Shown: in pieces, positions 31,469-63,922 of the stretch
Layout: each line of letters starts with the position of its first letter
How positions within the stretch are numbered: position 1 is the stretch's first letter
Origin: a virus
Virus record (IMG/VR): IMGVR_UViG_3300035695_000001
Coordinates: 50,139-114,138 of that record
Direction: 5' to 3' (one strand)
Length of the DNA: 64,000 bases
The notes under the pieces: generated by a model
What the model was told of the DNA's origin: nothing
Databases searched by the model: none
The model's input: the letters and a program-made list of their open reading frames with translations, nothing else
Made by a program: the position numbers and the translations under genes

Positions 31469-31570
31469 CTAGCACGGGCTGTCTAGCACGGGTGCAGGAA
31501 CGCAACGATGGGCGCCCGTCGGTTGCTCAGACGCCACTGTCTAGCAGCGGCCGGTGGTGCTAGACAGTGG
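31469..31570. promoter_or_regulatory. TGCTAGAC element cluster at a divergent junction
   Basis: gtctagca at 31481; ccactgtctagca-N11-tgctagacagtgg at 31534-31570. Confidence 0.8.
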
Positions 31571-31595
31571 GGGCCCGTAGGGGCAGGAGGCACGA

Positions 31596-31841
31596 ATGGC
31601 GAAGGTCACGATCGAGCGCATGGGCGGCGACAGTTACGAGCCTGTCCACATCACGGTGAAGGTCGACGGAGTCGAGGTGGGGAACGGCGGCATCGGCGGG
31701 GAGCCCGAGGACAACTGCGAGGCCCGCGACTACCGCTGGGTCCGCCCCATGATCGAGAAGTTGGCCAAGGCGCTCGGCGCCGAGGTCGAGACGGTGGCGG
31801 TGAACGACGACGAGGACGAGGACGAGGACGAGGATGTCTGA
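31596..31841 (+). CDS. Hypothetical protein with acidic tail
   Basis: AGGAGG RBS; ends DDEDEDEDEDV. Confidence 0.7.
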   Translation: MAKVTIERMGGDSYEPVHITVKVDGVEVGNGGIGGEPEDNCEARDYRWVRPMIEKLAKALGAEVETVAVNDDEDEDEDEDV

Positions 31842-32577
31842 GCGAGTCGGGCGCGTGGCGATGACCGCCGCAGAATTGCGGGGGGCCGTGTTCACGATCG
31901 CGGAAGGGATGGCCGGCCTGAGCGTCGGCCAAGCCACCACGGTGCGAGCGCTGACCCACCGCCTTATCGGCGAGGTCTGGCGACTCAGGGCCAAGATCCG
32001 CTACCAGACCCGGCGCATCTGGGACCTGGAGGAGGGCGCCAAGGAACTGGGGGCTCCCGCGTTCCCGAAGGAGATCCAGCACCTCCGGGAGCAGGTGACC
32101 AGCCTGCAAGCCAAGGGGACCGAACTGCTGGAGCGGGCACGGAGGGCGGAGGATCACTTCGGCGAGGTCGATGCGATCCTCGCCGAAGCCTTCCAGGCTG
32201 GCGGCTGGGCTAGAGGCGCAGCGGTGAGCCTCCCCGGTCTCATCAAGGGGCTGCGCGAGGGGCTGGAGGTCGCGCAGATGGCGAACAGCCAGCCAACGGT
32301 CAGCCCGCCGGATCGAGGCAACACTGATGCGTGGGAGACGCCGTGGCCGTCCATGGAGAAGGCGGTCATCCCGAGGACCACGGACGAGATCCAAGCCTGG
32401 CTCGCCGTCCACGCGATCGAGGAGTACCGTGGCGAGGTGGTCAAGTTCTGTGAGCAGAAGGCGATGTCCGCCCAGAGCGAGGGGCTCTGCCACCCAGACG
32501 TCCTCCGATCGATGTACTGCGATGGCCAGGCTTCGGCCTTCAAGGCGCTCGCCGCCATCCTCCGGGGTGCGAAGTGA
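31834..32577 (+). CDS. Hypothetical coiled-coil protein
   Basis: Overlapping, coupled ORF with GC3-rich codons. Confidence 0.65.
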   Translation: MSERVGRVAMTAAELRGAVFTIAEGMAGLSVGQATTVRALTHRLIGEVWRLRAKIRYQTRRIWDLEEGAKELGAPAFPKEIQHLREQVTSLQAKGTELLERARRAEDHFGEVDAILAEAFQAGGWARGAAVSLPGLIKGLREGLEVAQMANSQPTVSPPDRGNTDAWETPWPSMEKAVIPRTTDEIQAWLAVHAIEEYRGEVVKFCEQKAMSAQSEGLCHPDVLRSMYCDGQASAFKALAAILRGAK

Positions 32578-33308
32578 GCGCCGGGAACGTCGGCAAGGTG
32601 GTGACCTACACTTGCTCTTCCAAAGCCGACGGGGGCCAGCGGACCGTGAAGATCCTGGCCTGGGTCAAGGCAGGGGATTCGATGGACGCCACCCGTCAGT
32701 ACCTCCTGGTCCCGAAACGGCAGGATGGTGGCCCTGACTGCGCGGACACCTCGCAGTTCCACCGCTACCTCGTCCAGGAGGATCGCCGGACCCCCGCTGG
32801 CCGGGTCCTCAAGACGAAGTGGTACGCCCCGATCGCCAGCGTCATCGACTCGGCGCTGCGGTCGTCCGTGGGGGCAGCCGTGGAGCCGAAGGTCGCCGAG
32901 ATGCCTCCCGAGCCCAAAACCCGCACGGGCACGGTCGACGTGGAGAAGATCGAGGCCAACGCCACCAGCATCATCCTCTGGCTGAAGAACGCCGCAGCGG
33001 TGGCGCCGGCCATCCCTGGCGGGACGGATGGGTGCCTGCGGACCGCTGGCTTCATCCAGACGCTGCTCTCGACGATCCGGCACCTCAAGGACCGAGAGGA
33101 GAGCATCATCGCCGCCTGCGATAAGGTGGCGGACGGGGGCCAGTACAGGGCCGACATCGTCTCGGCCATCTCCGGCATGCGGAAGGAGCGGGACCAGTTG
33201 CGGCTGGCCCATACGGAGGCGGTGGGTCTGCTCAAGGAACTGCGCGGCGACGTCTCCGACGAGTCGTTCCTGGCCAGGATGGACGCCGTCATCGGGAACG
33301 CACCATGA
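32574..33308 (+). CDS. Hypothetical protein
   Basis: GTGA-coupled ORF. Confidence 0.65.
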   Translation: MSAGNVGKVVTYTCSSKADGGQRTVKILAWVKAGDSMDATRQYLLVPKRQDGGPDCADTSQFHRYLVQEDRRTPAGRVLKTKWYAPIASVIDSALRSSVGAAVEPKVAEMPPEPKTRTGTVDVEKIEANATSIILWLKNAAAVAPAIPGGTDGCLRTAGFIQTLLSTIRHLKDREESIIAACDKVADGGQYRADIVSAISGMRKERDQLRLAHTEAVGLLKELRGDVSDESFLARMDAVIGNAP

Positions 33309-33739
33309 GCAAGCGCATCGACGTGGTCTCCGCGGTCCTCCTCAACCAGGAGGGCCGGATCCTCCTGACCCAGCGCCGGCCCGGCAAGCCCTACCCATTC
33401 ATGTGGGAGTCGCCAGGGGGCAAGGTGGAGGCCGGGGAAAGCGACCGCGGAGCCCTCACCCGAGAACTGAGGCAGGAGATCGGGATCCTGCTCTACGACA
33501 TGGACCCGCAACCCATCTGGGAGGGTGAGCCGGCCCCTGGCATCTTCCTCCGGTTCTACTCGGGGATCCTCTTCGCTGGGGAGCCGAAGCCGAAGGAGGG
33601 GCAGGGGATCGGCTGGTTCCTCCAGCGCGAGGTCTCTGCCATGGCAGCGATGGCCGACTCGCTCACCCCAGGAAACAAGGCGGCCATGGTGGCGATCTCC
33701 GCCTGCATGCGGGCGGCTATGCCGCGGGAGGACTGGTGA
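33305..33739 (+). CDS. NUDIX hydrolase (MutT-like)
   Basis: WESPGGKVEAGESDRGALTRELRQEIG Nudix box. Confidence 0.92.
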   Translation: MSKRIDVVSAVLLNQEGRILLTQRRPGKPYPFMWESPGGKVEAGESDRGALTRELRQEIGILLYDMDPQPIWEGEPAPGIFLRFYSGILFAGEPKPKEGQGIGWFLQREVSAMAAMADSLTPGNKAAMVAISACMRAAMPREDW

Positions 33740-34263
33740 TGGCCGACAGGATCCTCGTCACCGGCTCGCGCGACTGGCCTGGGACCTTGGATGACATCGC
33801 CAGGCACCTGCCCGACCACTGCGACCCGAAGGTCGGCGAGGTGGTCATCATCCACGGGGCCTGCGCTCGGTGGCGTCTCCCAGACGGCCGCGTCGTCACC
33901 TATCCTGGTCCAGGCGGCGTGCAGTGCTCGGTCGACATGCTGGCCGACTTCGCTGCCCGAGGGCTCGGCTTCAAGGTCGAGCAGTACCCCGCCAACTGGG
34001 ATCGGGATGGGAAGGCCGCCGGCAACATCAGGAACGGGCGCATGCTCCGAGAGAGCCACCCGAACCGGGGACTAGCCTTCGGCGCCATCTGGAAGCGGGA
34101 CCCGCGCCGCACCTCGGGGGCCTTCAAGGGGTGGTCTCTACGAGGCACGGGGGACTGCGTCCAGCGCCTGCTCCGAGCCCGGCTGCCGGTCCGCTGGGTG
34201 GCCAGCCCCGAGGCCGACGCCGTCGACCTGCGCCAGCTCCCTCCTCCGCCAGTGGCCGGCTGA
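33736..34263 (+). CDS. SLOG-family protein (DUF2493/YspA-like)
   Basis: RILVTGSRDW...IIHGA...YPANWDRDGKAAGNIRNGRML...LAF...GT. Confidence 0.88.
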   Translation: MMADRILVTGSRDWPGTLDDIARHLPDHCDPKVGEVVIIHGACARWRLPDGRVVTYPGPGGVQCSVDMLADFAARGLGFKVEQYPANWDRDGKAAGNIRNGRMLRESHPNRGLAFGAIWKRDPRRTSGAFKGWSLRGTGDCVQRLLRARLPVRWVASPEADAVDLRQLPPPPVAG

Positions 34264-34607
34264 GCCCGGGGAGACCCGGGCCCGATGCCCTACAGCGTCG
34301 CGGCGAAGACTTCCGCGTCCGGAGAGAGAGCCTCTGCCCCGGGGTAGTCCCTGTCGAGCGCATCGGACGGCCGCGGAACCAGATCCACAGCACCGTCGAT
34401 CGCATCCGCAACGGGCCGGTACTCCGGCCCCATCGCCCGGAGCGGGGCGAGCGTCGAGTCAGACGTGCGGGTAGTCGGGGAACTGAACGGCGCGCGGTCG
34501 GTCCTGAACCTCGACGCGCGAGACAACAGCGACGCCGGGCGCGTACCCGCCCAAACGCTCGATCCGGAGCGAAGGCCGGGCGGGGCATCACAGGGGCGAG
34601 CGTTGCT

Positions 34608-34805
34608 TCAGTCGAACGAGAATGAGACCCATTCGGCGGGAACGTCGACGGTTTCGGTCCGGTAGGGATTCAGAGAACCGAACACAACGCGGTCCGCCGT
34701 CGTCGACACGAGCCGAACCTCGAACGGCTCCGAAGGAAGACCCGTTTGCCGGGCGTAGTCAGCGGGGATCGTCACGAAGCATCGAGCTTGCCGGGGGGTA
34801 TTCAT
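34608..34805 (-). CDS. Small hypothetical protein
   Basis: 65-aa beta-rich ORF with ATG start. Confidence 0.5.
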   Translation of the reverse strand: MNTPRQARCFVTIPADYARQTGLPSEPFEVRLVSTTADRVVFGSLNPYRTETVDVPAEWVSFSFD

Positions 34806-34877
34806 AACGCCCGAAGCCCCGGCTACCCTCCCCGGATAGGGGGGGCGGCTCGGGGCCGTTGCAGGGGCGAGGGGAGG

Positions 34878-35249
34878 CTACGCCGCGGTACCCTCGATGA
34901 GCTTCCCGGGGACCACGTAGCCCCGGGAGACGAGGTCAGCGTAGATCCGGCGCGCCTCCGGGGCGGGCACGAGGCGCACGTAGCCCGTCCGGGAGTAGGT
35001 CACCCGGCAGACGGGCGAGCCAACCTCGCCGGAGAACGTCACGTAGAAGCGCCCGTAGGAGAGGATATGAACCTCGACGGGCCGGGGGGCAACCACGGGG
35101 GGAGGGGACGCGGGCGCCTTCCGGACGCGGCGTTGACTCGCCGGAGGGGCGGGGATCTCGCACTGCGCGGGGCAGTGCGGATCGACGGGCGGAAGGGGAC
35201 GCGCCTTGACGGCGCGGGGTGAAGCCTTGCGGGTCGGGGTAGTTTTCAT
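34878..35249 (-). CDS. Hypothetical protein
   Basis: Start re-called at MKTTPTRK, which mirrors the start context of the divergent gene. Confidence 0.55.
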   Translation of the reverse strand: MKTTPTRKASPRAVKARPLPPVDPHCPAQCEIPAPPASQRRVRKAPASPPPVVAPRPVEVHILSYGRFYVTFSGEVGSPVCRVTYSRTGYVRLVPAPEARRIYADLVSRGYVVPGKLIEGTAA

Positions 35250-35574
35250 GCCGGATCCGTAGTGCAGAGGACATGCCAGGGGACGATAACGCGGAGCGTC
35301 GCCTAGAAACACAGGGGATCCGCAAGAAGAGGGGCAGAGGAGCAGGGGATAGGGGCCCGGCGGGTTGCAGGGGAGAGGGGGCACCATGACAGCAATGTCG
35401 CGCGGAAAGCCCGCAGAATCAGGGGGTATGATCCGCCAGTCATAGCGAAAACGCGGGAGATCCGATTACACCATGACAGCGATGTCATGCCACCGGGCGC
35501 GCTATCCGCGTCAAGGGCGGGAATCAGCGGGATCCGGGGGCGGCACGGGCCGTGCATTCCGGATCAGGCATGAA
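35245..35574. promoter_or_regulatory. Divergent control region with mirrored start contexts and duplicated operator-like site
   Basis: TGCACTACGGATCCGGCATGAA (minus, 35266-35245) vs TGCATTCCGGATCAGGCATGAA (plus, 35553-35574); CACCATGACAGC(A/G)ATGTC at 35382 and 35469. Confidence 0.65.
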
Positions 35575-35770
35575 GACATTCCAGGTGTCCGTTACCGACC
35601 AGCGCGGCAAGTACGTAGCCCGCAACTACACTGTCAGCGCCAATGATGCGATGACGGCGGAATTCGACGCTGTCGACAAGTTTATCGCCGATAACGGGCA
35701 TCCCCCGTACGTGCCCGGCAAGAGCAGGGCCAGCACGTACTACAGCCGGTTTTTCGCCTCTGCCAAGTGA
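35570..35770 (+). CDS. Small hypothetical protein
   Basis: MKTFQVSVTD..., 66 aa. Confidence 0.65.
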   Translation: MKTFQVSVTDQRGKYVARNYTVSANDAMTAEFDAVDKFIADNGHPPYVPGKSRASTYYSRFFASAK

Positions 35771-35829
35771 CCGCCTCTCCCGGGAGTCCCGCCCCTCACC
35801 CCAAACCCGGGGCAGGGGCTTCCGGCGTT

Positions 35830-36623: not shown

Positions 36624-36645
36624 CCCCAGCACCGACAGCGGACCA

Positions 36646-36699: not shown

Positions 36700-38655
36700 T
36701 CAGGCAGGGGGCATCGCGCCGGTGCTCCGGTAGACTGGCGCCGGCATCGCTCGGCTCAGCACCGCCCAGGCGATGGCAGCGGTGAGCACGAGGTCGTCGT
36801 TGCTCCCGTTCTTCGCCCTGGCCTTGCCCCAGGCGTCAACCACGAAGGTCCGGAACTCCTCCAGCACCTTGACGTCTGGGGTCCGCCAGTTCCCGACGCG
36901 GTGGTCCTGCTCCAAGCCTGAGAGCGCGGCCTCTCGGCTGGGGCCGGTGGTGACCCACCCCTTCTTCCCGTCGGCGTCGGCCCAGATGTTTGGCCAACCG
37001 ACCCAGTCGGCCCGCGCCCACTCGATCAGGCGCTTGGCGAAGGCTGGCGCGACCCTGGCGATCTCCCGCAGGTCTTGCGACGCTTCGACGTCGCACAGCC
37101 TGGCCTCTATGCAAGCACGGTCGCCGACCACGTCAGCGATCATCTTCGGCCTGGCCATCTCGTCGATGGTGGAGATCCCGGTGTTGTTTTTCTCGATGGC
37201 GATCCAGGCGTTGCCGTACCGGATGGCCAAGGCGACAGCGAGCCGGCCCAGTTCCTTCGGCTTCACTTGTCCATGCAGCGTGGCTACGTGCCTTGGGCGC
37301 GCCCCCCGGGTCCACACCTGCAAGGCGGCCGGGTCGCCACCCTCGCCGCCGCTGGTGTCACCCGCGACGAGGTAGCTCTCCTGCTTGTCGTAGTCCTCGA
37401 AGATCCGGAGCCCGTAGGAGGCGCCGGCCCTGCGAACCTGAATCACCTTCGGAGGCTTGGCCTTCTCCTTCGCGGTCGCCTCGCCGATGAGGTGCTCTGT
37501 GACCTCCTTGGCGAAGTAGCCGGTGCCCGACGCGATGAAGCATGTGATCGGGTCGGTGGGCATCTCCTTGTCGACGCGCATCTGCCCCTTGGCGCGGACC
37601 TGGGCCCGGTACCACTTGAGAAACTCCATCGCGATCGTCGTGATGGACTTGGTCCCGCGTTCGATGAGACTCAGCATCGTTTCCTCCTTGGAAAGGTGTT
37701 CATGGAGCAGGGCCCAGCACTGCTCCTCGCGGACGCGGCGCTCGTCGATGGGCTGCTGGTCGGGCGTGACCGTCTCGCCTTCGTCGAGCGGCAGGCGCCG
37801 GTTTGGCAACTCGAACCACGCGAAGAAGTGCGGCGTGAACTCGTCCCCCTCGGCGGACGTGGCCCGCTTCCACATGCGGTGGAAGTAGGCCCCACCACGC
37901 GGGTCGTCGTCGCTCGTGCTGACCCCGTTGGGAGTCGACTCGATCGTGACCTCGGTCCCAGGTGCCGGCGCGGTGACCGAGTTGAGCACGCTGTCCATGG
38001 TGGCCGCAGCGACCTCCCAGAAGGCGATCTCGGTGCAGTGCAGCCGGTGCGTGGTGCCACCGCGGCCCTTCTTGTCGGCGGTGTGCTCGCTGGCGCCGGC
38101 CTCCAGAACCTCCAGCACTCCGCCGCCAACCGTCGAGGAGAGCGCCCACCGCCCCTTGCCCCCGGCCTTGGCTTGGAGCGGGATGTCGAGCCCCTTGTCG
38201 ACCAGGCTCTTGAGCATGAGGTCGATCGTTCTGGCGAAGTCCTTCTGCATCCCGTGCTCGCTCTCCGTCTGCACGATGACGCGGACGTTGGCCCCTGGGT
38301 GCATGAGCCAATACCAAATGTCGCGGCCGATCTCGACGGTCGACATGCCCAGCTTTCTGGCCTTCAAAACTTGGTCCCTACCCGTGCGGGCAGCGTCGAA
38401 GTCTCGCTGGAGCTGCGTGAGCACGAAGGGGACCGGCCGGCCCGCCATCTCGCCTGGCTTCTCGCCTGCCTCGGCTGCTGGCACGCTCAGGTGCCCGCAG
38501 AACCCGACGAAGTCCCCAGCGTACTTCTCCCTCAGCGCGGCGAGGGTGGAGAGCGGCTTGCTGTCCCAGTTCTCCAGCAGGGACAGGGTCAGGTGGACGA
38601 GGTCGTCCAGACTCTTGGGGCCTCTGGGCTGAGGGCGGGCAGCAGCGCGGGGCAT
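36700..38655 (-). CDS. terL: Terminase large subunit
   Basis: VLKARKLGMST (Walker A), LHCTEIAFW (Walker B), IESTPNG (coupling motif); nuclease motifs GDTSGGEGGD, IEKNNTG, NDDLVLTAAIA. Confidence 0.95.
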   Translation of the reverse strand: MPRAAARPQPRGPKSLDDLVHLTLSLLENWDSKPLSTLAALREKYAGDFVGFCGHLSVPAAEAGEKPGEMAGRPVPFVLTQLQRDFDAARTGRDQVLKARKLGMSTVEIGRDIWYWLMHPGANVRVIVQTESEHGMQKDFARTIDLMLKSLVDKGLDIPLQAKAGGKGRWALSSTVGGGVLEVLEAGASEHTADKKGRGGTTHRLHCTEIAFWEVAAATMDSVLNSVTAPAPGTEVTIESTPNGVSTSDDDPRGGAYFHRMWKRATSAEGDEFTPHFFAWFELPNRRLPLDEGETVTPDQQPIDERRVREEQCWALLHEHLSKEETMLSLIERGTKSITTIAMEFLKWYRAQVRAKGQMRVDKEMPTDPITCFIASGTGYFAKEVTEHLIGEATAKEKAKPPKVIQVRRAGASYGLRIFEDYDKQESYLVAGDTSGGEGGDPAALQVWTRGARPRHVATLHGQVKPKELGRLAVALAIRYGNAWIAIEKNNTGISTIDEMARPKMIADVVGDRACIEARLCDVEASQDLREIARVAPAFAKRLIEWARADWVGWPNIWADADGKKGWVTTGPSREAALSGLEQDHRVGNWRTPDVKVLEEFRTFVVDAWGKARAKNGSNDDLVLTAAIAWAVLSRAMPAPVYRSTGAMPPA

Positions 38656-38658
38656 GGG

Positions 38659-38973
38659 TCAGCCGCCGATCTCCGTAACCGTGACGTCTTCGATCCACCC
38701 AGGCTGTGGGTTGAACGGAGCGGTGATGCAGACACGCATCGTGGCGAAGTCGATGTGGGCCTCGACGCCCTGGTCAGGCCAGGCGTTGGCCACCTCGACG
38801 GCGAGTCGGCTGGGCGTCAGCGTGTCGGCCTCGGGCTCACGCTCACCAGGCGCAGGGTCTGGCGCGTAGCGCTTGTATTTCGACAGGAAGACGTGAGCCT
38901 CGCCACGCATCCGCTCGAAGTGGCCTTGCGCGGCAAGGGTGTGCATCAGCGCTGCCTGTGCCACGGGCCTCAC
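38659..38973 (-). CDS. Hypothetical protein
   Basis: GTGA-coupled ORF immediately upstream of terL. Confidence 0.5.
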   Translation of the reverse strand: MRPVAQAALMHTLAAQGHFERMRGEAHVFLSKYKRYAPDPAPGEREPEADTLTPSRLAVEVANAWPDQGVEAHIDFATMRVCITAPFNPQPGWIEDVTVTEIGG

Positions 38974-39611
38974 GTCGCCTCCTCCGCCTTCGGCGCCTCG
39001 ATGACGATGGCCGGCGCCCACCCGAAGTGGCAGGTCCGCCAGTCGGGCCCGTAGGCTTCCGCGGCGGCCATGGCGTAGCCGTCCAGGTAGTCGCGGCGCT
39101 GGTCCTCGGGAACGTACTCGGGCGCGACCAGGGCCGTGGCGCGGGCAGCGAGCCCACCCGCCGAACCGAAGGGGTTGTGCTCACAGGCGTCGAGCGCGCA
39201 GTTGGTGGCGCCCCAGTTGTACGGCTCGGGGGGAGGGTCCTGCCAGGTGACCTTGGTCTTGCCGCCATGGCCGTGGATGCAGACCACCTCGGCCATGCTG
39301 TCGTAGATGGCGACCGACGAGTGCTTGGTCAGCCAGGACAGTGCGACCCTGCCGTTGGAGAAGCGGATCCCCTCGGCGACCCGGCCGGTACCTGAGACCC
39401 CGCTCTCGTCGTCGGAGCGGTCGAGCCAGAACCGGATCGTGGTGGGGGCGCTCTGGGTGGCGACTTCGAGGAAGCGCTCCGCGGCCTGCTTCTCGCCCGC
39501 GTCCTGGATCTTGAACTCGTAGACGATCTCTCGCGGCCGGATCTGATCGCGCGGGTTGGCTGGCTCGACTGGGGGCGGCGGAATGGTGCTGGGAGGGTGG
39601 GGGGCGTCCAT
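38970..39611 (-). CDS. Phage hypothetical protein
   Basis: Contains DESGVSGTGRVAEGIRFSNGRVALSW...IHGHGG, a motif I recall from many phages. TGCTAGACT lies 7 nt before the ATG. Confidence 0.7.
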   Translation of the reverse strand: MDAPHPPSTIPPPPVEPANPRDQIRPREIVYEFKIQDAGEKQAAERFLEVATQSAPTTIRFWLDRSDDESGVSGTGRVAEGIRFSNGRVALSWLTKHSSVAIYDSMAEVVCIHGHGGKTKVTWQDPPPEPYNWGATNCALDACEHNPFGSAGGLAARATALVAPEYVPEDQRRDYLDGYAMAAAEAYGPDWRTCHFGWAPAIVIEAPKAEEAT

Positions 39612-39636
39612 GCGCCAGAGTCTAGCACCTCGGTGT

Positions 39637-40494
39637 CTAGCAGTCGTGCTTGGGCCAGCCGATGTCGCGGATGACGGCGTGCGCGTTCGGCTGGTCGACC
39701 ACCAGTTGCGTGACCAGCGTGGCAGCGACGCCAGGTACCTCCCCCTTCTCGCCGCGTGAGAACTGGAACCGCACCGGCGACGAGTCGCCCACCCGGAGGT
39801 AGTTCAGGCAGACGTGGTCTGGTTGCAGGAGCACGATGATGCCCCGCGGGAACCGCTCGACGTTGGAGAGGCGCATGCCTACCTGCTGGAGCACCTTGCC
39901 GGCAGCGTCCATCGCGTCGGGGTTGCCCACGGCCAGCGTGGGAGCCGTACCGCTGGCGGTGACGCAGTAGTTGACTGCCCGGGTCGCCAGCGCCGTCGTG
40001 AGGGGCCTCGGCACGCCGCCGTTGGCGAAAACGTTGGCGCTCCAGTGCGGGTAGGTCGATCGGCTGATGTTGGCGTAGACGGCGGTGGCGGCCAGCGCAC
40101 CACCGAGCAGGCCGTAGATGGCCGGGTTGTGGTTCCGGTCGATCCCGTTCCCGACGTGGAGGTCGTCCTCGACGAGACGGGCCAGGGCTCCGAACACCTT
40201 GGTGACCCGCTCACGGAACCGCTCGGCGAGCGCTTCCCGCCCGTAGGTCTCCGCCGCGAGCACGTCCTCCGCCGTGACCTGGAAGGCGGCCCGGTACATG
40301 CCCCACGGGAGGCACGCTTGCCCGGTCGGCCCGGTCACTCCATCGGGGCGTGCCTCCCAGTTGACGTTCTTGCCGTACCCTGGCCGCGCCTCCAAGGCGG
40401 CCATGAGGCTGTTCGGGCCGGCGTGCTTGGCTCCGAACTCGAAGTGGTAGGTGCTGGTGAGGGCTGAGGTGATCCTGGTGGCTGCGTCGTCCAT
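39637..40494 (-). CDS. Major capsid protein paralog (diverged, shorter)
   Basis: GLLGGALAATAVYANISRSTYPHWSANVFANGGVPRPLTTAL aligns with MCP GVLGGALELSGSYAGISRSTYPGWAGNVLSNGGTPRPLTLAL; C-terminal QLVVDQPNAHAVIRDI aligns with QLRVEHPNANGYIADI. Confidence 0.88.
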   Translation of the reverse strand: MDDAATRITSALTSTYHFEFGAKHAGPNSLMAALEARPGYGKNVNWEARPDGVTGPTGQACLPWGMYRAAFQVTAEDVLAAETYGREALAERFRERVTKVFGALARLVEDDLHVGNGIDRNHNPAIYGLLGGALAATAVYANISRSTYPHWSANVFANGGVPRPLTTALATRAVNYCVTASGTAPTLAVGNPDAMDAAGKVLQQVGMRLSNVERFPRGIIVLLQPDHVCLNYLRVGDSSPVRFQFSRGEKGEVPGVAATLVTQLVVDQPNAHAVIRDIGWPKHDC

Positions 40495-40501: not shown

Positions 40502-40533
40502 GTCTAGCAGTACCGACGCCTGCTAGACAGTGG
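40502..40533. promoter_or_regulatory. TGCTAGAC inverted pair
   Basis: gtctagca-N11-tgctagacagtgg; on the minus strand TGCTAGACT lies 6 nt before the ATG at 40494. Confidence 0.8.
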
Positions 40534-44712: not shown

Positions 44713-44752
44713 CACTGTCTAGCACAAGGTCGTCCGGTTGTGCTAGACAGTG
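44713..44752. promoter_or_regulatory. TGCTAGAC palindrome at a divergent junction
   Basis: cactgtctagcacaa...ttgtgctagacagtg, perfect 15-bp inverted repeat. Confidence 0.85.
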
Positions 44753-45589: not shown

Positions 45590-46000
45590 ATGCCCACCCC
45601 AAAGAAGCCAGCCAAGCAGCCACGATCCTCCGAGCCGACCGAGACGGTGGAGCCCTCGTCCAGGGCCCCCGTCGAGCGGAAGAGCCCCATGCTGGCCACC
45701 ACGGTCTCCAAGGAGGTCTACAACGCCGTCCAGGAGGCCATGGAGGAGCACGGGCTCAAGCGGTCCGTCGTAGTCGACAACGGGCTCCGGATCGGCCTCG
45801 GGCTCGGGGCAGGGCCGGAGGGGTGGAAGATCCCCATGCCCCCAGGCTTCAAGGCGCTGGCCGCCAAGAACGGAGCCCACAAGACCATGGCAGCCGTCGA
45901 GGCTGTAGCCGAGGTTCTCCCCGAGCGGATCGTGGAGCGGGACGGCGAGGGAGCCCCCGAGGAGCAGAGCCAGGTCCCGCGCAGGGGAAAGAAGCGATGA
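45590..46000 (+). CDS. Putative ribbon-helix-helix DNA-binding protein
   Basis: PMLATTVSKEVYNAVQEAMEEHGLKRSVVVDNGL fits a strand-helix-G-S-helix RHH pattern. Confidence 0.6.
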   Translation: MPTPKKPAKQPRSSEPTETVEPSSRAPVERKSPMLATTVSKEVYNAVQEAMEEHGLKRSVVVDNGLRIGLGLGAGPEGWKIPMPPGFKALAAKNGAHKTMAAVEAVAEVLPERIVERDGEGAPEEQSQVPRRGKKR

Positions 46001-47077
46001 CCCGCCTGTACGACCCAAGCCGCTTGGCGGAGGCGCTGCGCGTTCGCGGCTTCATCACGCACATCGGTCCGGAGGAAATGGTCGGCGTAGGCAGCGGGGC
46101 ACTGCACTTCGGCGGGCCTGCCGCACTCCAAGAACTGCTGGACCTGCATCGCGGAGTCATCCGTCACGCAGGCTGGCCGGAGACCCCGCAAGAGTTCTTG
46201 GACCGTGTCGCTCGGGAATGGGTGAGCGAGACGAAGCGACTCTACCGCGTCATCGCTCACGCTTTCGGCGACGTGGTCTACGTCGATCGAGAAGAGCCTC
46301 ACCCCGACGACTGGAAGACACATCCGGACATGCCTGGTGCTGGGAAGCCCATGGGCTACCTGCCGCTTGACCGCATCCTGGACGATGGCATCGACCTGCG
46401 CCAACTCAACGTGGTGCCAACCTTGGGCACGCTCAAGGCTCGGAAGAGTTACCGCTTCAGGTACCGCCAACAAGTAACGAGTGCCCGATGATCTGCGGGC
46501 TCATCCACGAGCCTGGCGTCCAGACCTCGCCGTGCCAGAAGCCGGCCGGGCACCAGGAGCCGTGGTGGACGCGCCCTGTCGGCCTACCCACGCTGAAGAG
46601 CAAGACGCTGATGTGGTGGCGCCGCACGCGCAAGGTCCGAAAGGCCGCTCGCCAGTCGGAGCGAGACCGACGAGCCCTCATCGCTGAGATCCAGGAACTG
46701 GCCTACCTGTGGGACGGGCCAGGATCGGAAGGCAGGTGCGTGTGAGAGAGCGCGTTCACGAACGGGTCGCTATCCGTGGACCAAACGGTCACGAGGTTCG
46801 AGATCGATCGTTCCGCCTTTTCGTGGACGACCAGCGCCCGCTCGCAGACCTCTGCCTCGTGGCGCTGTCTCGGGTCAGGAGAGGCATGTGTTTCGGCTGG
46901 GAAGCGTGCGCAGCGCTCGACGTTCGCACGCCGACCATGGAGCGGGTCATCGCCTTCCTCCTCGGCGCTCGACTGATCCATCGGGTCCGCAGGTTCAAGG
47001 CCGACGGTGAATGTGGACCAGACGGCCGTCATGTCGTCACGCGAGAGCTGCTCTACATCGCCGCAGGGGACCGATGA
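45997..47077 (+). CDS. Three coupled hypothetical genes (45997-46491, 46488-46745, 46742-47077)
   Basis: ATGA/GTGA overlaps. Confidence 0.6.
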
Positions 47078-47472
47078 CTGGGCTCACCGACAGGCAGGCT
47101 GAGATCCTGGCCTTCATCCGGGCCCGCTACCGGGAGAAGGGGTACGCGCCGACCATCCGTGAGATCGGCGCCCACTTCGGGATCCGCTCGACCAACGGCG
47201 TCAACTGTCACGTCAACAGGCTGGTCGCGAAGGGGGCGCTGCGGAAAGAGGACATGAAGTCCCGCTGCCTGGTCCCCGTCGAGCGGGAGGAAGCACCCGT
47301 ACGGGCGCCGGCTCAATGCGAGGACGGGCAGGGAGACATCGTCGCCGTCGACGTGGTGGAGTTCGTGCGCGGTACGGGTCTGGTCGGGAACGTACGAGAG
47401 ACCCTGCGGTTCGACGCGAAGTTGCTGGTGGACACCGCCAGGCTGCCGAGTCTCTGGGCCAGGCGGCCGTAG
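47074..47472 (+). CDS. Truncated LexA-like repressor (winged-HTH domain, no S24 peptidase domain)
   Basis: [12 protein letters not shown]...[34 protein letters not shown]...SR; only 132 aa. Confidence 0.9.
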
Positions 47473-49973: not shown

Positions 49974-50012
49974 CCACTGTCTAGCAGTTCTGAGCCCACT
50001 GTGCTAGACAGT
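49974..50012. promoter_or_regulatory. TGCTAGAC palindrome at a divergent junction
   Basis: ccactgtctagca-N15-tgctagacagt. Confidence 0.85.
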
Positions 50013-50800: not shown

Positions 50801-52059
50801 GCGCGCCCATCCTGCAACCTGGCGACCGTCGCAGGCATCCGGTCACCCACCTGACCGCGCGTATCCTCGGTCCTGGTAGCCGCCCCGGCGCGCTTGCCGT
50901 GGCCTACCCGGACTACGAGACCGAGGTCGACGACGCCGTGCTCGCGTCGTGGTGGCGCGTGGACGAGACTGGCAAGATCGTGCTCTGCGAGCGTTGCTCG
51001 ATCCCGATGCGGTCCGATGCGTGCGATGTCTGCCGTCCCGCCGAGTCCGTACCGCAAGAGCCGCCGAGCCCGGAGGAAATGGCGAAGCAACTTCACCGCG
51101 CCTGGAAGCTCGTTGGGCTCGGCCCGTGCGGCGGCGCCGTCCGTGGAATCGAAGCCGAGCGTGCCCGCCGCGATGCCGAGGTATCGGATGACCTGCTTCG
51201 GCGCCTCCTCCGCCGGGCCATCGGCAAGATCCTCGCCGGTCGTGCCGAGGTGGCGGAACTGCGCGAGGAGGTCGAGCGCCTCCGCTCCTCCAAGAGGACC
51301 GAGAACGCCCTGGCCATGCACGAGGCAACCTGGAGGAAGGTGCTGGGCCAGTGGCTGCTCGGGGAGACCAACATCCGCCCCGGGTACCTCGCCGACAAGG
51401 TCCGGGAGACGCTGGCCTCTGAGCCCATGTACCAGGCCGAGACCGATCCCGACGTCGAGCACCTGCGCCAGACGCTTGGCGCGACGTCCAAAGAGACGCC
51501 GCTGGACGCCGCCAGACGGGTGACCCGCGGCCTTGGCCTGGCGGTCGACGAAGTGGCGCGGCTTCGGAGCCAGGTCACGGACCTTGAGGGCTACCGCGAT
51601 CGAGTCGACGAGGCCGAGAAGCGGGTCAGGATGATCGCGTTCCAGGTGACCTGCATGAGCGTCCGGATGGCCGAGATGATGGAGCACGTCCTGCTGGCAG
51701 ACGTGCTCATCGCGGAGGCTGTCGCTGGCATGAAGGAGCGCTGCGCCAAGGTGGTGGAGACGTTGCACGGCGGGTGCGCATCCAGGGACAAGGTCGCCGC
51801 CGCCATCCGAGCGCTGTCAGACACCAGCAAGTCCGCCAAACGCGGCGAGGGGCTGCCGGTAGCGCTGGAACGTGTACGGGAAGCCGCCAAGGTGGTCGTC
51901 GGCGCCTTCAAGCTCAACGTCACCTCGCGGAAGGGAGACGCCGAACTGCGGGCCGCAGCGCTGGCCACCCTGACCCCTGAAGAGACGGCAGAGGCCGAGG
52001 CAGCGGCGCACCGCGAATGGGTCGCGTCGTCGCCCAGTACCGGCAAGCCCACTGTCTAG
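50797..52059 (+). CDS. Hypothetical coiled-coil protein with Zn-ribbon
   Basis: GTGA-coupled; CERC...CDVC; stop is the element's TAG. Confidence 0.65.
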   Translation: MSAPILQPGDRRRHPVTHLTARILGPGSRPGALAVAYPDYETEVDDAVLASWWRVDETGKIVLCERCSIPMRSDACDVCRPAESVPQEPPSPEEMAKQLHRAWKLVGLGPCGGAVRGIEAERARRDAEVSDDLLRRLLRRAIGKILAGRAEVAELREEVERLRSSKRTENALAMHEATWRKVLGQWLLGETNIRPGYLADKVRETLASEPMYQAETDPDVEHLRQTLGATSKETPLDAARRVTRGLGLAVDEVARLRSQVTDLEGYRDRVDEAEKRVRMIAFQVTCMSVRMAEMMEHVLLADVLIAEAVAGMKERCAKVVETLHGGCASRDKVAAAIRALSDTSKSAKRGEGLPVALERVREAAKVVVGAFKLNVTSRKGDAELRAAALATLTPEETAEAEAAAHREWVASSPSTGKPTV

Positions 52060-52062
52060 CAG

Positions 52063-52299
52063 ATGAGGGGCCTATCCTTGGACGAGGCGCAGATCCTCGT
52101 CGACATCTCCGACCCGGTCGCGGCCCACTACCGCAGCGGCGGTCTCACCTGGGCCGAGGTCTACCGCCGACGTCCCATCCTCCACAAACTCACGTTGGAG
52201 GGCAGGGCGGCACCCAACGATCGCGGAGGCTGGCAGATCACTGCGCTCGGCAGGCTCGCCTTGCGCGTGTCGCTATCGCTCCCGCGACCGACTGTCTAG
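52063..52299 (+). CDS. Small hypothetical (winged-helix-like) protein
   Basis: Flanked on both sides by ACTGTCTAGCA; contains WQITALGR. Confidence 0.6.
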   Translation: MRGLSLDEAQILVDISDPVAAHYRSGGLTWAEVYRRRPILHKLTLEGRAAPNDRGGWQITALGRLALRVSLSLPRPTV

Positions 52300-52443
52300 C
52301 ACCCACCCCCCAAAGCAGAGGCCCCAGGGGAGCCGGGGGAGGCATCCTGGGGCCAGGTCAGTGGCGCTGGACGGCAGCGGAAAGGGAGGGGCTCGTCCGG
52401 GCGCCGCTGGTGGACGATGTCTAGCAGGACCCGCGGGCACTGT

Positions 52444-53034
52444 CTAGCACTGCTTCTCGGCCTGGTTCTCCGCCACTTCCTCGCGGACTTTAGCCACGAA
52501 CCGCTCCACGTTTGGCGAAGCTGGACCATCGAACCCGACGCTCGCCAGACGTTTACGGAACGTCTCCTCCGTCGGGAGCGTCTTCCACCGCGCGATCTCG
52601 TAGGCGATTTCGTGGTGGCTACGCGCGGCGAACGCTGCTGACTCGTACATCCACGCCAGCGCTGCCCAGCCGTGATCGTTGGTCCACGCATCGTCGACCG
52701 GCATCGACCGAACCTCCGCCAGCAGCGCGGGGATGGTGCCTGAGACCGAGCAGACGCGACACGTTGCAGGCGCGATTGATGCGTCACGCTTCTTCCACCT
52801 CGCACGAAGCGTCGCGATGGTCGCACCTTGAACAAGGCTCACGATGGTGATGAGCCCGCCGGTTACCACGCCGCCGTAGAACGTCGGCCAGAGGGCGCGG
52901 ACGCTCACCTGAGCGATGGCGCACATCGCTACGTTCGACAGCATCAGTCCGATGATCGTCGCCATCCGCCTGACGATCACGGCTTCACCTGCGGGTGGCT
53001 GTGGGCCGCGTCGATGGCCATGATTGCTCCTCAC
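52444..53034 (-). CDS. Hypothetical membrane protein
   Basis: Two hydrophobic segments; stop is the element's TAG; start uncertain. Confidence 0.55.
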   Translation of the reverse strand: MRSNHGHRRGPQPPAGEAVIVRRMATIIGLMLSNVAMCAIAQVSVRALWPTFYGGVVTGGLITIVSLVQGATIATLRARWKKRDASIAPATCRVCSVSGTIPALLAEVRSMPVDDAWTNDHGWAALAWMYESAAFAARSHHEIAYEIARWKTLPTEETFRKRLASVGFDGPASPNVERFVAKVREEVAENQAEKQC

Positions 53035-53854: not shown

Positions 53855-53894
53855 CCACTGTCTAGCACAGTGGGCTCGGAACTGCTAGACAGTG
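53855..53894. promoter_or_regulatory. TGCTAGAC palindrome at a divergent junction
   Basis: ccactgtctagca-N15-tgctagacagtg; near-identical inverted copy of 49975-50012. Confidence 0.85.
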
Positions 53895-55158: not shown

Positions 55159-55601
55159 GTCAGTTTTGACCCTGGGCAGGATCCTTGGGCAACCACGGTG
55201 TAAGTCGATTCTTTTGACGCCCGCTATGGACGTGATAAGCCCCCCGAAGTGCTTGGACGGAGCGGGGGCGAGTGACGGGGAACGTGTGCCTTTCTGCTTC
55301 TGTGCGGGCTACTGCACGCATCTGATCTTCCTCTGGTTCTGCGCGCCTCAGCGCGTCTGGACTTCGGATCCGGATCGGTGCTGGCGGCGGTTTGCCGACG
55401 TCGAGGGAGCCGCTGTCGGTCTTGTCACAGCCCCCAGGGGCCCGGCCCCTGGACCCGGGTTCGCCGTCGCCGTGACTACGGTGGGGTCTTCGACCCCAAC
55501 CTCCGCTCACGTCTAGGCTCACCTTCTGGGATTTGGGATCGATGGGGATCCAGACCCGGATCTGCGTCGAAGGGGGTGCTCGCTGGTGGACCTGGCCGCA
55601 C

Positions 55602-55636
55602 TGCTAGACAGTTCCTCCGACCAGTGCTAGACAGTG
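55602..55636 (+). promoter_or_regulatory. Direct pair of TGCTAGACAGT (23-bp period)
   Basis: tgctagacagt at 55602 and 55625. Confidence 0.8.
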
Positions 55637-56751: not shown

Positions 56752-56790
56752 GACGGCGGATTCCTAGATTCTGGGTGCTAGACAGTCGTG

Positions 56791-60025: not shown

Positions 60026-60030
60026 GGGCA

Positions 60031-60061
60031 GAGTCTAGCACAGTGGGCGGGTGCTAGACAG
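60031..60061. promoter_or_regulatory. TGCTAGAC inverted pair
   Basis: gagtctagca-N11-tgctagacag. Confidence 0.8.
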
Positions 60062-60076
60062 CGGCGAGCAGGAGCG

Positions 60077-61156
60077 TCAGCCCTTGGCTGTGACCTGGTC
60101 AGCCTCGTCGAGCGCTGCCTTCATCTGATCCACGTACCCGCGGAGGACCACCTTGGCCTCGGGGGAGAGCATGCGCTTGTCGGCAGCCTTGATTGGGGCC
60201 ACCACTTCGAGTGCTACGCGGGTACTCGTGATGGCGATCTCCTCGGGGTCTCTGTTCCTGTCAGAGCCGCGGGTTGCGAGCCAGTCCAGGTTCGACTGGA
60301 GGAAGGCCGCCCCGTCCACGAACGTCTGGCCCATGGGCAGCGAGAAGGCGTCCTGCGACGCCAGCACGTCGTCCCCGTTGCGGAACACAAAAACGAGGTA
60401 GTAGTCGGACTCGTCCCGCTTGGCGAAGGCTTGCTTGAGGTGCGTCTGCCGCTCCTGCGCCTTCTCCATCGCGAGCGAGAGGTTCATGGCCTGGGCGCTC
60501 GCCTTCATGGCGTCGCCGGAGGCTCCGAACATCGTGTAGAAGTCCCCCTCGCTGAAGCCGGTGGCCTTGAGCTTCACCTTGGGGCGCTTGAGCAGTTCGC
60601 CGAGAAGCGCGAAGTTCCAGCCGCCCTGGGCCATCGCGTTGTTGAGAGCGATCCCAACCTCGACGTGCTTGTCCTCGTCCAGGTCCACGACCGAGACCTG
60701 GATCTGGTAGACGTGGCCGGTCTTGCTCTCCTTGTCGAGCACCTTGAGCCGCTGGTGCCCGCTCACCATCCCGAGGGGCTTGCCGTCGGGACCGAACCGC
60801 TTGTTGAAGACGACGCTGGGTTCCACCAACCCGTTGTCGGCGACCGAGCCGCGGAGGGCAGCGAGATTGTCAACCTCGATGTAACGAGGATTTTGTTCCC
60901 ACTCGGTGATGGCCCGGCGGTCCATCCAGACCACCTCGTAGCCTCCGTCGAGTTGGTGGCGTGGGACCTCCGCCGAGCCGATGGGGAGAGCGGCCAGCCT
61001 CTCCTTGTCGGTCTTCGGCTTGGACTCCTTGGGGGCCGCGCCGTCCGCCGGAGCCTTCTTCGCTCGCGGCTTCTTGGCCGGCTTCTCGGTCTGCGTCTGG
61101 TTCTGATCCTGCGAGGCTGCCGCCGCCGCGCCGGACTCGGGTGCAACGTCGTCCAT
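60077..61156 (-). CDS. ParB-N domain protein (phage type)
   Basis: WEQNPRYI...LRGSVADNGLVEP...VSGHQRLKVL...VDLDEDKH...IALNN...QGGW...TGF. Confidence 0.88.
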   Translation of the reverse strand: MDDVAPESGAAAAASQDQNQTQTEKPAKKPRAKKAPADGAAPKESKPKTDKERLAALPIGSAEVPRHQLDGGYEVVWMDRRAITEWEQNPRYIEVDNLAALRGSVADNGLVEPSVVFNKRFGPDGKPLGMVSGHQRLKVLDKESKTGHVYQIQVSVVDLDEDKHVEVGIALNNAMAQGGWNFALLGELLKRPKVKLKATGFSEGDFYTMFGASGDAMKASAQAMNLSLAMEKAQERQTHLKQAFAKRDESDYYLVFVFRNGDDVLASQDAFSLPMGQTFVDGAAFLQSNLDWLATRGSDRNRDPEEIAITSTRVALEVVAPIKAADKRMLSPEAKVVLRGYVDQMKAALDEADQVTAKG

Positions 61157-61165
61157 GCGTGAAGG

Positions 61166-61825
61166 CTACCCGTCAACGTCAGCACTGGCCAGATGCAGCC
61201 ATGCCTTCCCGTTCACGATCTGATGGCACCGCGCCTGACAGACGCCGAACGCCTCGGCGAGCACCCTGTACGTGTCGCCAGCGGCTCGTCGCCGTCGGAT
61301 CTCGATGACCTGCTCGTCGGTCAATTTGACGTTGGGCGACCCCTCGCCTTGGTTCACGTACCCCCTACAACGGCCACGCCGCATCATGTCCGCAGTGTTG
61401 TCCGCCGCCGTGCCGAGTTTCAGGTGGGCCGGATTGACGCACGGCGGGTTGTCGCAGTGATGCAGTACCCACAGGTCCACCGGGATCGAGCCAACGAACA
61501 GTTCCCACGAAACGCAGTGGGTACCGTTCGTCTCCCCGTCGATGTCGATCTTCCCGTACCCGACGTCCTTTGAACGCCCGCGAGTCCATTGCCAGCACGG
61601 ACCAAGTTCGGGGACGATGATTGGACCATCAAAGCAGATGCCGTCGAAGAAACGGTCGAGCCACGAGCCGACCGTGCCCTTGTATGAGGCGGCCCACGAA
61701 GCCTTCGCGCACTCGTCAGAGCAGCACCTGCGCCCCTTGGTCTCCAGCGTCCTTTGGAAGTCCTTGCCGCAGTTCTTGCACTTCCGTACGCTGAGCATGT
61801 TCGACCACCCTTCTGGTTGAGCCAC
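61166..61825 (-). CDS. HNH homing endonuclease with C-terminal HTH
   Basis: CWQW...GYG...H...SWEL...VLHHCDNPPCVNPAHLKLGTAADNTADM; KLTDEQVIEIR...FGV. Confidence 0.92.
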   Translation of the reverse strand: MAQPEGWSNMLSVRKCKNCGKDFQRTLETKGRRCCSDECAKASWAASYKGTVGSWLDRFFDGICFDGPIIVPELGPCWQWTRGRSKDVGYGKIDIDGETNGTHCVSWELFVGSIPVDLWVLHHCDNPPCVNPAHLKLGTAADNTADMMRRGRCRGYVNQGEGSPNVKLTDEQVIEIRRRRAAGDTYRVLAEAFGVCQARCHQIVNGKAWLHLASADVDG

Positions 61826-61867
61826 CTGCCCGGGGCGCGCTAACGCCCGCGGGTAGGCCCTACACTA

Positions 61868-62569
61868 TCACGGTGCAGCGCTTGGAAGGCTGTAGAACCG
61901 ACGCCGCCAGACCGTGGCCCAGATGAAAGGGAAGTCCTCGGCGAGCAGCGCGAAGTCAGCCGGGTGACGACGGTGCAGCCACTCCAGCGACGGCGCGGTG
62001 AGGTCGATCCCGGTCGCGCTGTGCCCGCTGGAGTCGGGGATGGGGATCCCGTTGGCGGCCAGGAACTGGATGACGTCCACCTTCAACCACGACGCGATCG
62101 GATGGTAAATCTCGGCATACTGGACCGCCTTGAGTGTCCGGCGACGCCAAAGCGAATCGGCAGCCTTGGCCCCGGTCAGGATGACCTGGATGCCGGTACT
62201 CTCGATGGACCAGTCGTAGACGTCCCGCACCGTCAGGTCAGGGATCGCTGCGATGGCTTCAGGCGAGAGCGGTGGCCGGTACAGGTTGGCCTTGAGCATG
62301 CGAGCGAGGATCCAATGCGGAAGTTGGACGATCTCCATCCCGTGCCGGCGGCGCCCATCGTCGAGCGCCTCCTCCACACACGCGAGGCCCTTCTTCAGGT
62401 ACATGAAGACCCCGACCACCTGGTCGAACTTGCGGTGCGCGAGTGCGCAGATCGTACGACTCTCCTTGCCTCCGCTGTAGAAGCACAGCGCCCGCTTGGA
62501 GCCAGTCCTGGCCACGGCATCTGCCGCGGCTCTGTCGAGGATTTCTGTGGTCTGTTCGAGCTTGCCCAA
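61868..62569 (-). CDS. PAPS-reductase-like (PP-loop) protein
   Basis: FYSGGKES PP-loop; TGAKAADSLWRR; YHPIASW...DV. TTG start shortly after TGCTAGACT. Confidence 0.88.
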   Translation of the reverse strand: MGKLEQTTEILDRAAADAVARTGSKRALCFYSGGKESRTICALAHRKFDQVVGVFMYLKKGLACVEEALDDGRRRHGMEIVQLPHWILARMLKANLYRPPLSPEAIAAIPDLTVRDVYDWSIESTGIQVILTGAKAADSLWRRRTLKAVQYAEIYHPIASWLKVDVIQFLAANGIPIPDSSGHSATGIDLTAPSLEWLHRRHPADFALLAEDFPFIWATVWRRRFYSLPSAAP

Positions 62570-62614
62570 TGTGGGCGGAGTCTAGCACCCAGGCGTTGCA
62601 CCTGGGGCGTGAGG

Positions 62615-62845
62615 TCAGCCGGCGCCGCCGTGGTTGGAGTTGTTCCCGGTGCCGGGCCCGACGTTGCCCTTGTTGCGGTTGTTCTGCCGCTTCTTGGCCC
62701 CGGGGGTCCCGGGCTTGGGGGCGCCCTTGATGCCCAGTGGGGTCTTCGGGGTCGCCGTCCCCTTCACCGGGATGGCCCCGGGAGCCCGGAACCCGCCGGG
62801 GTTCGCCTTGCCCTTGGGCATGATCACCGCTTTCTTCGCCGCCAT
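62615..62845 (-). CDS. Small Lys/Gly/Pro-rich basic peptide ending GGAG
   Basis: Strong AAGGAG RBS; GC3-rich codons; 76 aa with no acidic residues. Confidence 0.75.
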   Translation of the reverse strand: MAAKKAVIMPKGKANPGGFRAPGAIPVKGTATPKTPLGIKGAPKPGTPGAKKRQNNRNKGNVGPGTGNNSNHGGAG

Positions 62846-62965
62846 GGTCTTTCTCCTTAGAGATCCGCCGACACAGGGCCGGCTCTTGGATGAGAGCCAA
62901 GAGTACGGCCTCGTCGAGCGGGATGGTAGGGGTGTCGAGGGGGTGGGTGCTGGTTTCTGCGGTGT

Positions 62966-63922
62966 CTAGCAGGAGGGGCTACCGGCGGGAGCGGCGGATG
63001 GCTCCACGACGGGAGGGGCGTCGTGGACCTTGGCCCAGATCCTCCCGGCCATGATGGCGCCGACCAGTGAGCCGCTGACGCCGAATCGCGCCGCGACCGC
63101 CTGCTTCTCCTCCCCAGCGCGAACCAAGGCTCGGATCTCTCGCACCTTGTCGGGGTTCAGTTTTGCGCGCGCGTCTGGGCCGATGGTGCCAGGCACCTCC
63201 AGCCAAATCTTGCCGCGCAGGATGCCCGTAATGGTCGAGTTGTGAACACCGAACGCATCCGCTACAGCGCGCCGCTTCTCACCGGCCGCCACACGCGCCC
63301 GGATGTCGCGAACCTGGTCGGCCGTCAACTTGCCGATGCCCATACGCGCACGAGCACCCTTCAAGCGCTTGCCGCACTCCACAAGTTTCGCCCGGCCCGC
63401 TGGCGTCAGCGTAGCGGCGCTGCGCGCCTTGCTCATTGCAGCACGCGCCTCCGGGGTCGACTGTCGCGCCGTCGCTGAAGCACTCATCTTGGCCCGGGTC
63501 TCTGGTGAGTGCTTGCGCCCACGCTGCGACACCTTCGACCGCTCGGCGATCTTCGCTCGCGTCTCCGGCGACTGGACGTGCCCAGGGGTCCCGTCTCCGC
63601 CGTCTGTGGCGTTGGTGAGGCGGGCGCCGAGCGCGCGGTAGTGGGCGATCCACTTCTTCTCGGCGTCCTTCCAGAGGTCCATGTCCGTGCCCGTCTCCAA
63701 TACGATCGGGACTGGCATCAGACCTGCGGCAAGGAGCGAGCGGAGCCACCTGCTCTTCCACGAGTTGTAGTCTTGGCTCTTCTTGGATCGCGCGGCGCCG
63801 CAATGGGTACGCAGACGGTTCCACGCGGTCTTCACCGTCCAGCCGACGTAGCGAACGTCGCCGGCATCGGCGAGCGGCACTGGGTCCAACAGTGCGTAGA
63901 TCGTCCAGGTCTTCGCTTCCAC
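62966..63922 (-). CDS. GIY-YIG homing endonuclease with NUMOD3 repeats and two C-terminal HTHs
   Basis: TIYALLDP...RYVGWT...RL..H...EKKWI...LTN; GRKHSPETRAKMS. Confidence 0.9.
   Translation of the reverse strand: MEAKTWTIYALLDPVPLADAGDVRYVGWTVKTAWNRLRTHCGAARSKKSQDYNSWKSRWLRSLLAAGLMPVPIVLETGTDMDLWKDAEKKWIAHYRALGARLTNATDGGDGTPGHVQSPETRAKIAERSKVSQRGRKHSPETRAKMSASATARQSTPEARAAMSKARSAATLTPAGRAKLVECGKRLKGARARMGIGKLTADQVRDIRARVAAGEKRRAVADAFGVHNSTITGILRGKIWLEVPGTIGPDARAKLNPDKVREIRALVRAGEEKQAVAARFGVSGSLVGAIMAGRIWAKVHDAPPVVEPSAAPAGSPSC

Follow-up and report, generated by a model that had tools for sequence, protein, structure and literature searches.

A near-invariant dispersed word at the gene junctions of a complete soil phage genome, probably the core of a phage promoter class

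The stretch of DNA analysed here (the window, 64,000 nt) corresponds to bases 50139–114138 of IMG/VR virus record IMGVR_UViG_3300035695_000001 and carries, at its gene junctions, many copies of a dispersed word with the core 9-mer TGCTAGAC(A/T). The record has the IMG/VR status complete and comprises 162,811 bp, its ends overlapping by 127 bp, giving a 162.7-kb genome of 68% GC that was recovered from rhizosphere metagenomes (soil phage), and matches to portal, capsid and terminase proteins identify it as a tailed phage. The named closest homologues of its LexA-like protein are LexA proteins of Myxococcales/Deltaproteobacteria, indicating that the host probably belongs to the Myxococcota. Gene calls were made in this analysis and were in good agreement with the public calls; ten window proteins were singletons at 90% identity.

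Within the window 29 exact copies of the word were found, against 0.75 +/- 0.93 expected from shuffles (maximum 5), and every coordinate and strand listed in an earlier note on this DNA proved to be exact. The excess was upheld when the complete genome was counted against a Markov background, with 49 copies observed and 1.5–3.7 expected (orders 1–4), and it ranks first among the over-represented 8-mers of the whole genome. Taken together, the 49 copies give S-TGCTAGAC-A(45)/T(4)-G-T as consensus; the word is quasi-palindromic (TG-N5-CA) and it is near-invariant, a position weight matrix (PWM) scan of the genome yielding a single strong intergenic variant. Its siting at gene boundaries, as the note had described, was borne out, since only 1 of the 49 copies lies wholly within a called gene, compared with a background fraction of 0.87 (p=8e-42). 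The copies fall into 29 clusters consisting of 13 outward inverted pairs (start-to-start distances 18, 19 five times, 22, 23 four times, 24 and 32), six direct pairs (periods 23 four times, 20 and 15) and singles. The eight outward pairs reported for the window, with spacers of 11, 11, 16, 15, 15, 15, 24 and 11 bp, were correct, and across the genome the spacers of inverted pairs range from 10 to 24 bp. Two long stretches are free of the word: one of 32.1 kb that includes the structural block at window 1–31.4 kb, where the absence of copies had been correctly noted, and one of 29.7 kb formed by an early array of small genes (genome 139931–162684 plus 1–6903). The description of the word as a repeat of the accessory half was therefore right as to its presence there and wrong as to its confinement, as 20 copies lie outside the window, copies 31481 and 31539 face the head of the structural operon and the second gap falls elsewhere. 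The sites of the window, with start-to-start distances or periods in brackets, and two genes for DNA-binding proteins that might read the word are as follows.

31466..31488, minus strand: copy 31481, followed after 14 bp by the canonical extended -10 element TGC-TAGCCT, which lies 6 nt ahead of the leaderless ATG 31459 of the first gene of the leftward structural operon
31539..31565, unstranded: inverted pair (19) at the divergent junction between the structural operon and a rightward operon
39620..39642, minus strand: direct pair (15); 39620 is TAGACT, 7 nt ahead of the ATG of a 213-aa gene, and 39635 is the stop of the upstream gene
40502..40528, unstranded: inverted pair (19); left copy TAGACT, 6 nt ahead of the ATG of the 285-aa gene 39637–40494
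44717..44748, unstranded: divergent junction with an inverted pair (24), of which the left copy is TAGACA, 6 nt ahead of the ATG of a 72-aa Cys-rich open reading frame with a weak gene score
45530..45580, unstranded: three copies (20, 23), the last being TAGACA, 8 nt ahead of the ATG of the ribbon-helix-helix (RHH) gene
45590..46000, plus strand: RHH-like protein of 136 aa, predicted homodimer and candidate autoregulated reader of the word
47074..47472, plus strand: LexA DNA-binding domain with no peptidase domain, a weak reader candidate
49975..50012, unstranded: inverted pair (23) at a divergent junction, in a 38-bp unit that shares 97% identity with its inverted counterpart at 53857–53894
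52054..52061, minus strand: single antisense-facing copy, its TAG being the stop of the gene ending at 52059
52294..52301, minus strand: single antisense-facing copy, its TAG being the stop of the gene ending at 52299
52419..52449, minus strand: convergent junction with a direct pair (23), downstream of which no gene was found
53857..53894, unstranded: divergent junction with an inverted pair (23), of which the right copy is TAGACA, 6 nt ahead of the ATG of a 77-aa gene
55602..55632, plus strand: direct pair TAGACA-17 bp-TAGACA, 44 nt ahead of a gene led by a Shine–Dalgarno (SD) sequence; best match to the pair in relative L148
56047..56086, unstranded: convergent junction with an inverted pair (32), its two copies antisense-facing and a degenerate copy between them
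56776..56783, plus strand: single antisense-facing copy with degenerate neighbours
60033..60059, unstranded: inverted pair (19); left copy TAGACT, 6 nt ahead of the ATG of a 122-aa gene
62580..62587, minus strand: single TAGACT, facing into a PP-loop gene
62964..62971, minus strand: single copy that faces into an SD-led 76-aa gene and provides the stop of the gene ending at 62966

When the last six bases of the 9-mer are taken as a -10 hexamer, TG-n directly precedes the hexamer in all 49 copies, by definition, as in an extended -10 promoter. The ordinary leaderless promoters of this phage show a peak of TAnnnT 6–7 nt before the ATG, seen for nine genes against at most one at any other distance; these motifs are often preceded by TG-n, and in three of the nine genes the motif is the word. 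Conversely, a called-gene ATG was found 6–8 nt after the hexamer for 6/49 copies against 0.53 expected (p=1.5e-5) and for 3/45 copies of the TAGACA form alone (p=0.013), with zero of the copies having an ATG at 6–8 nt in the opposite orientation. The predicted +1 base is A in 18/49 copies (p=7e-4), or in 14/45 when the four ATGs at this position are excluded (p=0.015). The word occurs at 9 of 11 divergent junctions and faces into the next gene in 34/49 cases (p=0.009), the remaining forward copies lying 20–260 nt ahead of genes, and the full AGT/T ending is present in 22/30 sense-facing copies compared with 4/13 antisense ones (p=0.016). Among the direct pairs, 4/6 have the form TAGACA-17 bp-TAGACA, which reproduces -35/-10 spacing with a hexamer one base off the canonical -35, whilst the inverted pairs place TGTCTA or TAGCAN in the -35 zone, a weak, post hoc reading. 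These data support the regulatory branch of the earlier note, in that the word behaves as a promoter core, with an extended -10 register, leaderless ATGs, a +1 A bias and a place at divergent junctions. We consider it probable that the host sigma70-type RNA polymerase uses a single promoter class throughout this phage and that the word forms its core, with a phage reader probably acting in addition.

Two distant relatives (L047 and L048) have many leaderless TG-n-TAnnnT promoters at the same kind of junction, amongst them a back-to-back TG-n-TAnnnT pair (L048:5053-5150) that shares the 23 geometry. To judge from such predicted starts, leaderless mRNA seems to be common in this phage group.

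From position, register and pair geometry we infer transcription, its timing and the involvement of a reader, and the following scheme is proposed. The host holoenzyme would open the DNA at the word, read as a TG-C-TAGAC(T/A) extended -10, and transcription would start approximately 7 nt downstream, either at the A of the ATG in leaderless genes or at the head of a short SD-bearing leader. A second copy 18–24 bp upstream would sit in the -35 zone and provide an upstream contact; in a direct pair the upstream copy would offer TAGACA at a 17-bp spacer, and in an outward inverted pair the partner would double as the -10 of a back-to-back promoter. A phage protein would probably read the word or remodel the polymerase, and in this way approximately 29 operon heads, including that of the structural operon, might switch as one temporal class.

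Several observations weigh against this promoter scheme. Position -7 of the hexamer is T in only 4/49 copies and A in 45/49, so that most copies do not conform to TAnnnT, and an A at this position is normally disabling for group-1 sigma factors. No match to sigma region 2 (PF04542) was found in the phage genome, 15 copies face antisense or lie at convergent junctions and the gene score is weak for one of the six leaderless genes. Any spacing of 18–24 would put some T-initial hexamer in the -35 zone of inverted pairs. Two copies lie 14–15 bp upstream of a separate canonical -10 and one approximately 50 bp upstream, positions that better fit a protein site than a -10. Because of the A at -7 in 45/49 copies the word has to be regarded as a variant of the extended -10 promoter. 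A bare sigma70 -10 would retain T at -7 and vary at other positions, and the combination of A at -7 with a near-invariant word suggests that a phage protein probably reads or licenses it.

Two candidates for this protein were identified. The RHH gene at 45590, one of three DNA-binding proteins proposed in the earlier note, gave RHH-like matches in the Atlas, is leaderless and has three exact copies of the word directly upstream. Its homodimer model scored 0.61 against 0.00 for the best control, with run contact agreement of at least 93% and a predicted local distance difference test (pLDDT) value of at least 73; this homodimer mark was passed by 21/30 solved pairs and 0/23 single chains, and the pass may stem from likeness to solved RHH dimers. 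The proposal was accordingly supported as far as an RHH-like dimer is concerned, and the protein is a candidate reader of the word. The LexA-like protein at 47074, also proposed, has a LexA DNA-binding domain with no peptidase domain and is a weak candidate. The second candidate reader or factor, suggested by domain matches, is the sigma4-only protein P0001 (360 aa; genome 143103–144185, plus strand; L010:10603-11685), which belongs to a family of 17 members. A Cys/His-rich N-terminus is followed by an alpha/beta domain, which in some members is DUF1699_N; the helical middle looks like a second sigma4, and at the C-terminus lies a sigmaA-like region 4 whose recognition helix is intact. P0001 matched sigma4 only, with no region 2 and with its middle domain barely covered by the fold search; it had no Foldseek match at E<=0.001, none of the tests made it a homologue of gp39 or AsiA, and a search of the genome for extracytoplasmic function (ECF)-type sigma4 found none. 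P0001 is present in both word-carrying phages and also in relatives whose sampled DNA lacks the word, so the link of the sigma4 protein to the word is unproven.

The same RHH gene lends weight to a different explanation, namely that the word is the operator of one phage repressor, most likely RHH 45590, placed over promoter cores, with antisense copies acting as roadblocks. Such a repressor would account for the near-invariance of the word, for the copies at -26..-21 of separate -10 elements and for the antisense copies. The three exact copies ahead of the RHH gene, the RHH-like matches, the homodimer score of 0.61, the spacing of 23 found in both orientations and the quasi-palindromic site also speak for it. 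However, a pure operator does not predict the exact 6–8 nt ATG register or the +1 A bias, and the genome has no integrase and no ParA, giving no sign of a lysogenic state to maintain. Orientation with transcription holds in only 34/49 copies, whereas that of stoperators is tightly correlated (PMC9283540). The word resembles the L5/cluster A stoperators (PMC9283540) and the P1 C1 operators (PMC8546580) in comprising more than 20 short asymmetric sites at promoters and in short intergenic spaces, and differs from both in the lack of integrase and ParA, in its loose orientation with 13 outward pairs, in the site itself lying in the -10 register and in its candidate readers, RHH or sigma4-like in place of their two-domain helix-turn-helix repressor. 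A primary operator function is on balance somewhat unlikely, and it may coexist with a promoter role.

L148 is the sole close relative found to carry the word (approximately 75% nucleotide identity; three copies in 2.5 kb). Its direct pair (24) lies right before the sigma4 gene, and one further copy is followed after 16 bp by TACCAT, which in turn precedes an ATG by 6 nt, an arrangement that favours the promoter reading. The word as a -35 with a downstream TAnnnT was thus seen once in L148, and at 22–24 bp it was not found in the genome studied here. In the phage studied here the sigma4 gene has no preceding site, and the pair best matching that of L148 precedes a different gene. Relatives found through the terminase (40–61% identity) or the sigma4 protein (42–51%) had no word in 1.8–22 kb of DNA each, only the relative at 69% having it. 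Since relatives with the sigma4 protein lack the word, there is no co-variation between it and the sigma4 recognition helix. When viral contigs and bacterial genomes were scanned for the pattern, nothing but isolated single pairs in unrelated DNA emerged, with no clustered dispersed pairs of this type in bacterial genomes among the 80 matches listed.

A different gene behind a similar pair is what would be expected if the promoter units were mobile cassettes like the promoter early stem-loop (PeSL) elements of T4-like phages, copied round the genome and providing short homology patches for gene shuffling. Two near-identical units, of 38 bp at 97% (49975–50012 and 53857–53894, inverted) and of 32 bp at 94%, and shared extensions of 19–25 bp between some units point the same way, and PeSL recombination requires only small patches (PMC2839356). 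However, the comparison covers one relative and 2.5 kb, most site pairs share just 9–12 bp and the early small-gene array has no copy at all; covariation and terminator scans revealed no terminator stem-loop, no U-tracts and no covariation. As in the PeSL elements (PMC2839356, PMC4122927), repeated intergenic promoter units are found among ORFans and none in the virion block, some units are nearly identical and the gene behind the unit differs in a relative; unlike them, the units here have no AT-rich UP element, no terminator stem-loop, mostly 9–12 bp of homology and outward pairs, and recombination is putative. Shuffling of this kind is quite improbable as the main reason for the repeat, and plausible, at tentative confidence, as a side effect of the promoter role. 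The 38-bp inverted repeats (one mismatch) flank 3.9 kb, a segment that could be inverted by homologous recombination.

The other branch of the earlier note, in which a site-specific gene-cassette system of integron, pdif or shufflon type would use the word for crossover, fared poorly and is highly improbable. The word is intergenic, overlaps stop codons and contains the rare CTAG, and a subset of sites has short inverted arms round an asymmetric core, all of which speaks for such a system. The seven stop-codon overlaps reported were real; their enrichment was not, as 10/48 word sites outside genes overlap a stop compared with 8/41 other CTAGs outside genes. The search for a recombinase or HUH enzyme elsewhere on the contig was likewise negative, with no tyrosine or serine recombinase, resolvase or Y1/HUH match (PF00589, PF00239, PF07508 and PF01797) in the complete genome while controls were positive, these Pfam models not covering a wholly divergent enzyme. 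Spacers vary from 10 to 24 bp in place of a fixed 6–8 bp between arms, inner stem extension was 13 compared with 18.4 for shuffled partners, no hairpin covariation was detected and core operons are also served. Contigs over window 43.5–63 kb had only short-sided joints, none at the word. The crossover site was rejected for want of a recombinase of the four families, for its variable spacers and lack of covariation and for the absence of any copy in the largest small-gene array. An explanation of the inverted pairs as RNA hairpins (terminators or processing sites) or DNA cruciforms is scarcely credible: the pairs do fold at -14 to -27 kcal/mol, but the stems are merely two copies of the word, shuffled partners fold as well or better (p 0.81–0.97), U-tracts are lacking and approximately half of the clusters are singles or direct repeats.

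The favoured promoter explanation has parallels in other phages. The middle promoters of T4 are the domain of AsiA/MotA. In Thermus phage P23-45 the middle and late promoters are of the extended -10 type and gp39 displaces sigma4, sparing them (PMC3950348). The system proposed here is like both in its TG-n-hexamer promoters and use of host polymerase, with the phage factor of those systems acting at sigma region 4/beta flap, and unlike both in having a near-invariant 9-mer, mostly with A at -7 and paired at -35 spacing, and a candidate factor that is itself sigma4-fold. With the 17-bp repeat of cluster O mycobacteriophages it shares more than 30 nearly invariant copies in a phage genome; that repeat has a fixed dyad with a 3-bp spacer, lies within genes in a third of copies and is not tied to starts (PMC4351075), whereas the word is asymmetric, is not inside genes in 48/49 cases and is tied to start codons. 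As in bacterial bidirectional promoters, a short region is predicted to drive divergent transcription, although starts there are 10–23 bp apart (PMC12825309) and most pairs here have approximately 41–47 bp between predicted starts, arising from two back-to-back -10 words. The word would, judged from its sequence context, be a phage-specific dispersed promoter word, a variant of known phage promoter/operator networks, and what is unusual is the A at -7, the use of one word in pairs that are back-to-back or at -35 spacing, and a candidate factor with sigma4 only.

A further-reaching form of the proposal, which as a whole is unlikely, is that a single 9-bp word plays the part of the -10 and of the -35, that two copies make a self-reciprocal bidirectional promoter, that a phage protein composed of a small alpha/beta domain and one or more sigma4 folds, without sigma2, reads TAGACA or displaces host sigma4 so that the polymerase fires without the -7 T, and that the units double as shuffling points. 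To our knowledge, little is known of transcription control by large phages of myxobacteria-like hosts. If true, the combined -10/-35 word with a sigma4-fold reader would constitute a way of appropriating sigma not described before, in a Myxococcota phage. A putative regulon of approximately 29 junctions can here be read from sequence, with two named candidate readers. A -10 that works in the absence of the -7 T, or a compact two-way promoter of 40 bp under the control of a single protein, would be useful to transcription specialists and for myxobacterial engineering; were the word to fire with the host enzyme alone, it would merely be an ordinary repeated promoter.

A number of further features were observed. 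The leaderless gene at window 38970–39611 has a precomputed Pfam match to PF26761 (Acb5) and is a possible anti-defence gene under a word promoter, the 285-aa gene 39637–40494 resembles the capsid gene and the 240-aa gene 30737–31459 had no usable match in the Atlas. The terminase large subunit (window 36700–38655) lies outside the structural operon, and relative L049 has a second, partial terminase-like copy. A TnpB/Cas12f-like gene is present at genome 19800–20957 (L007:100-1257), with no Y1 transposase/TnpA in the genome. AGCT is strongly avoided genome-wide (observed/expected 0.20) and CTAG much less so (0.59); the former suggests a host restriction site, and two DNA methyltransferase families are encoded by the phage. 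Finally, a non-coding or decayed segment recurs at 77% identity at window 55330–55470, genome 29665–29728 and L148:943-1041, near direct pairs and in the relative; GATC-rich repeats adjoin it, and it is possibly an origin, a non-coding RNA or a gene remnant.

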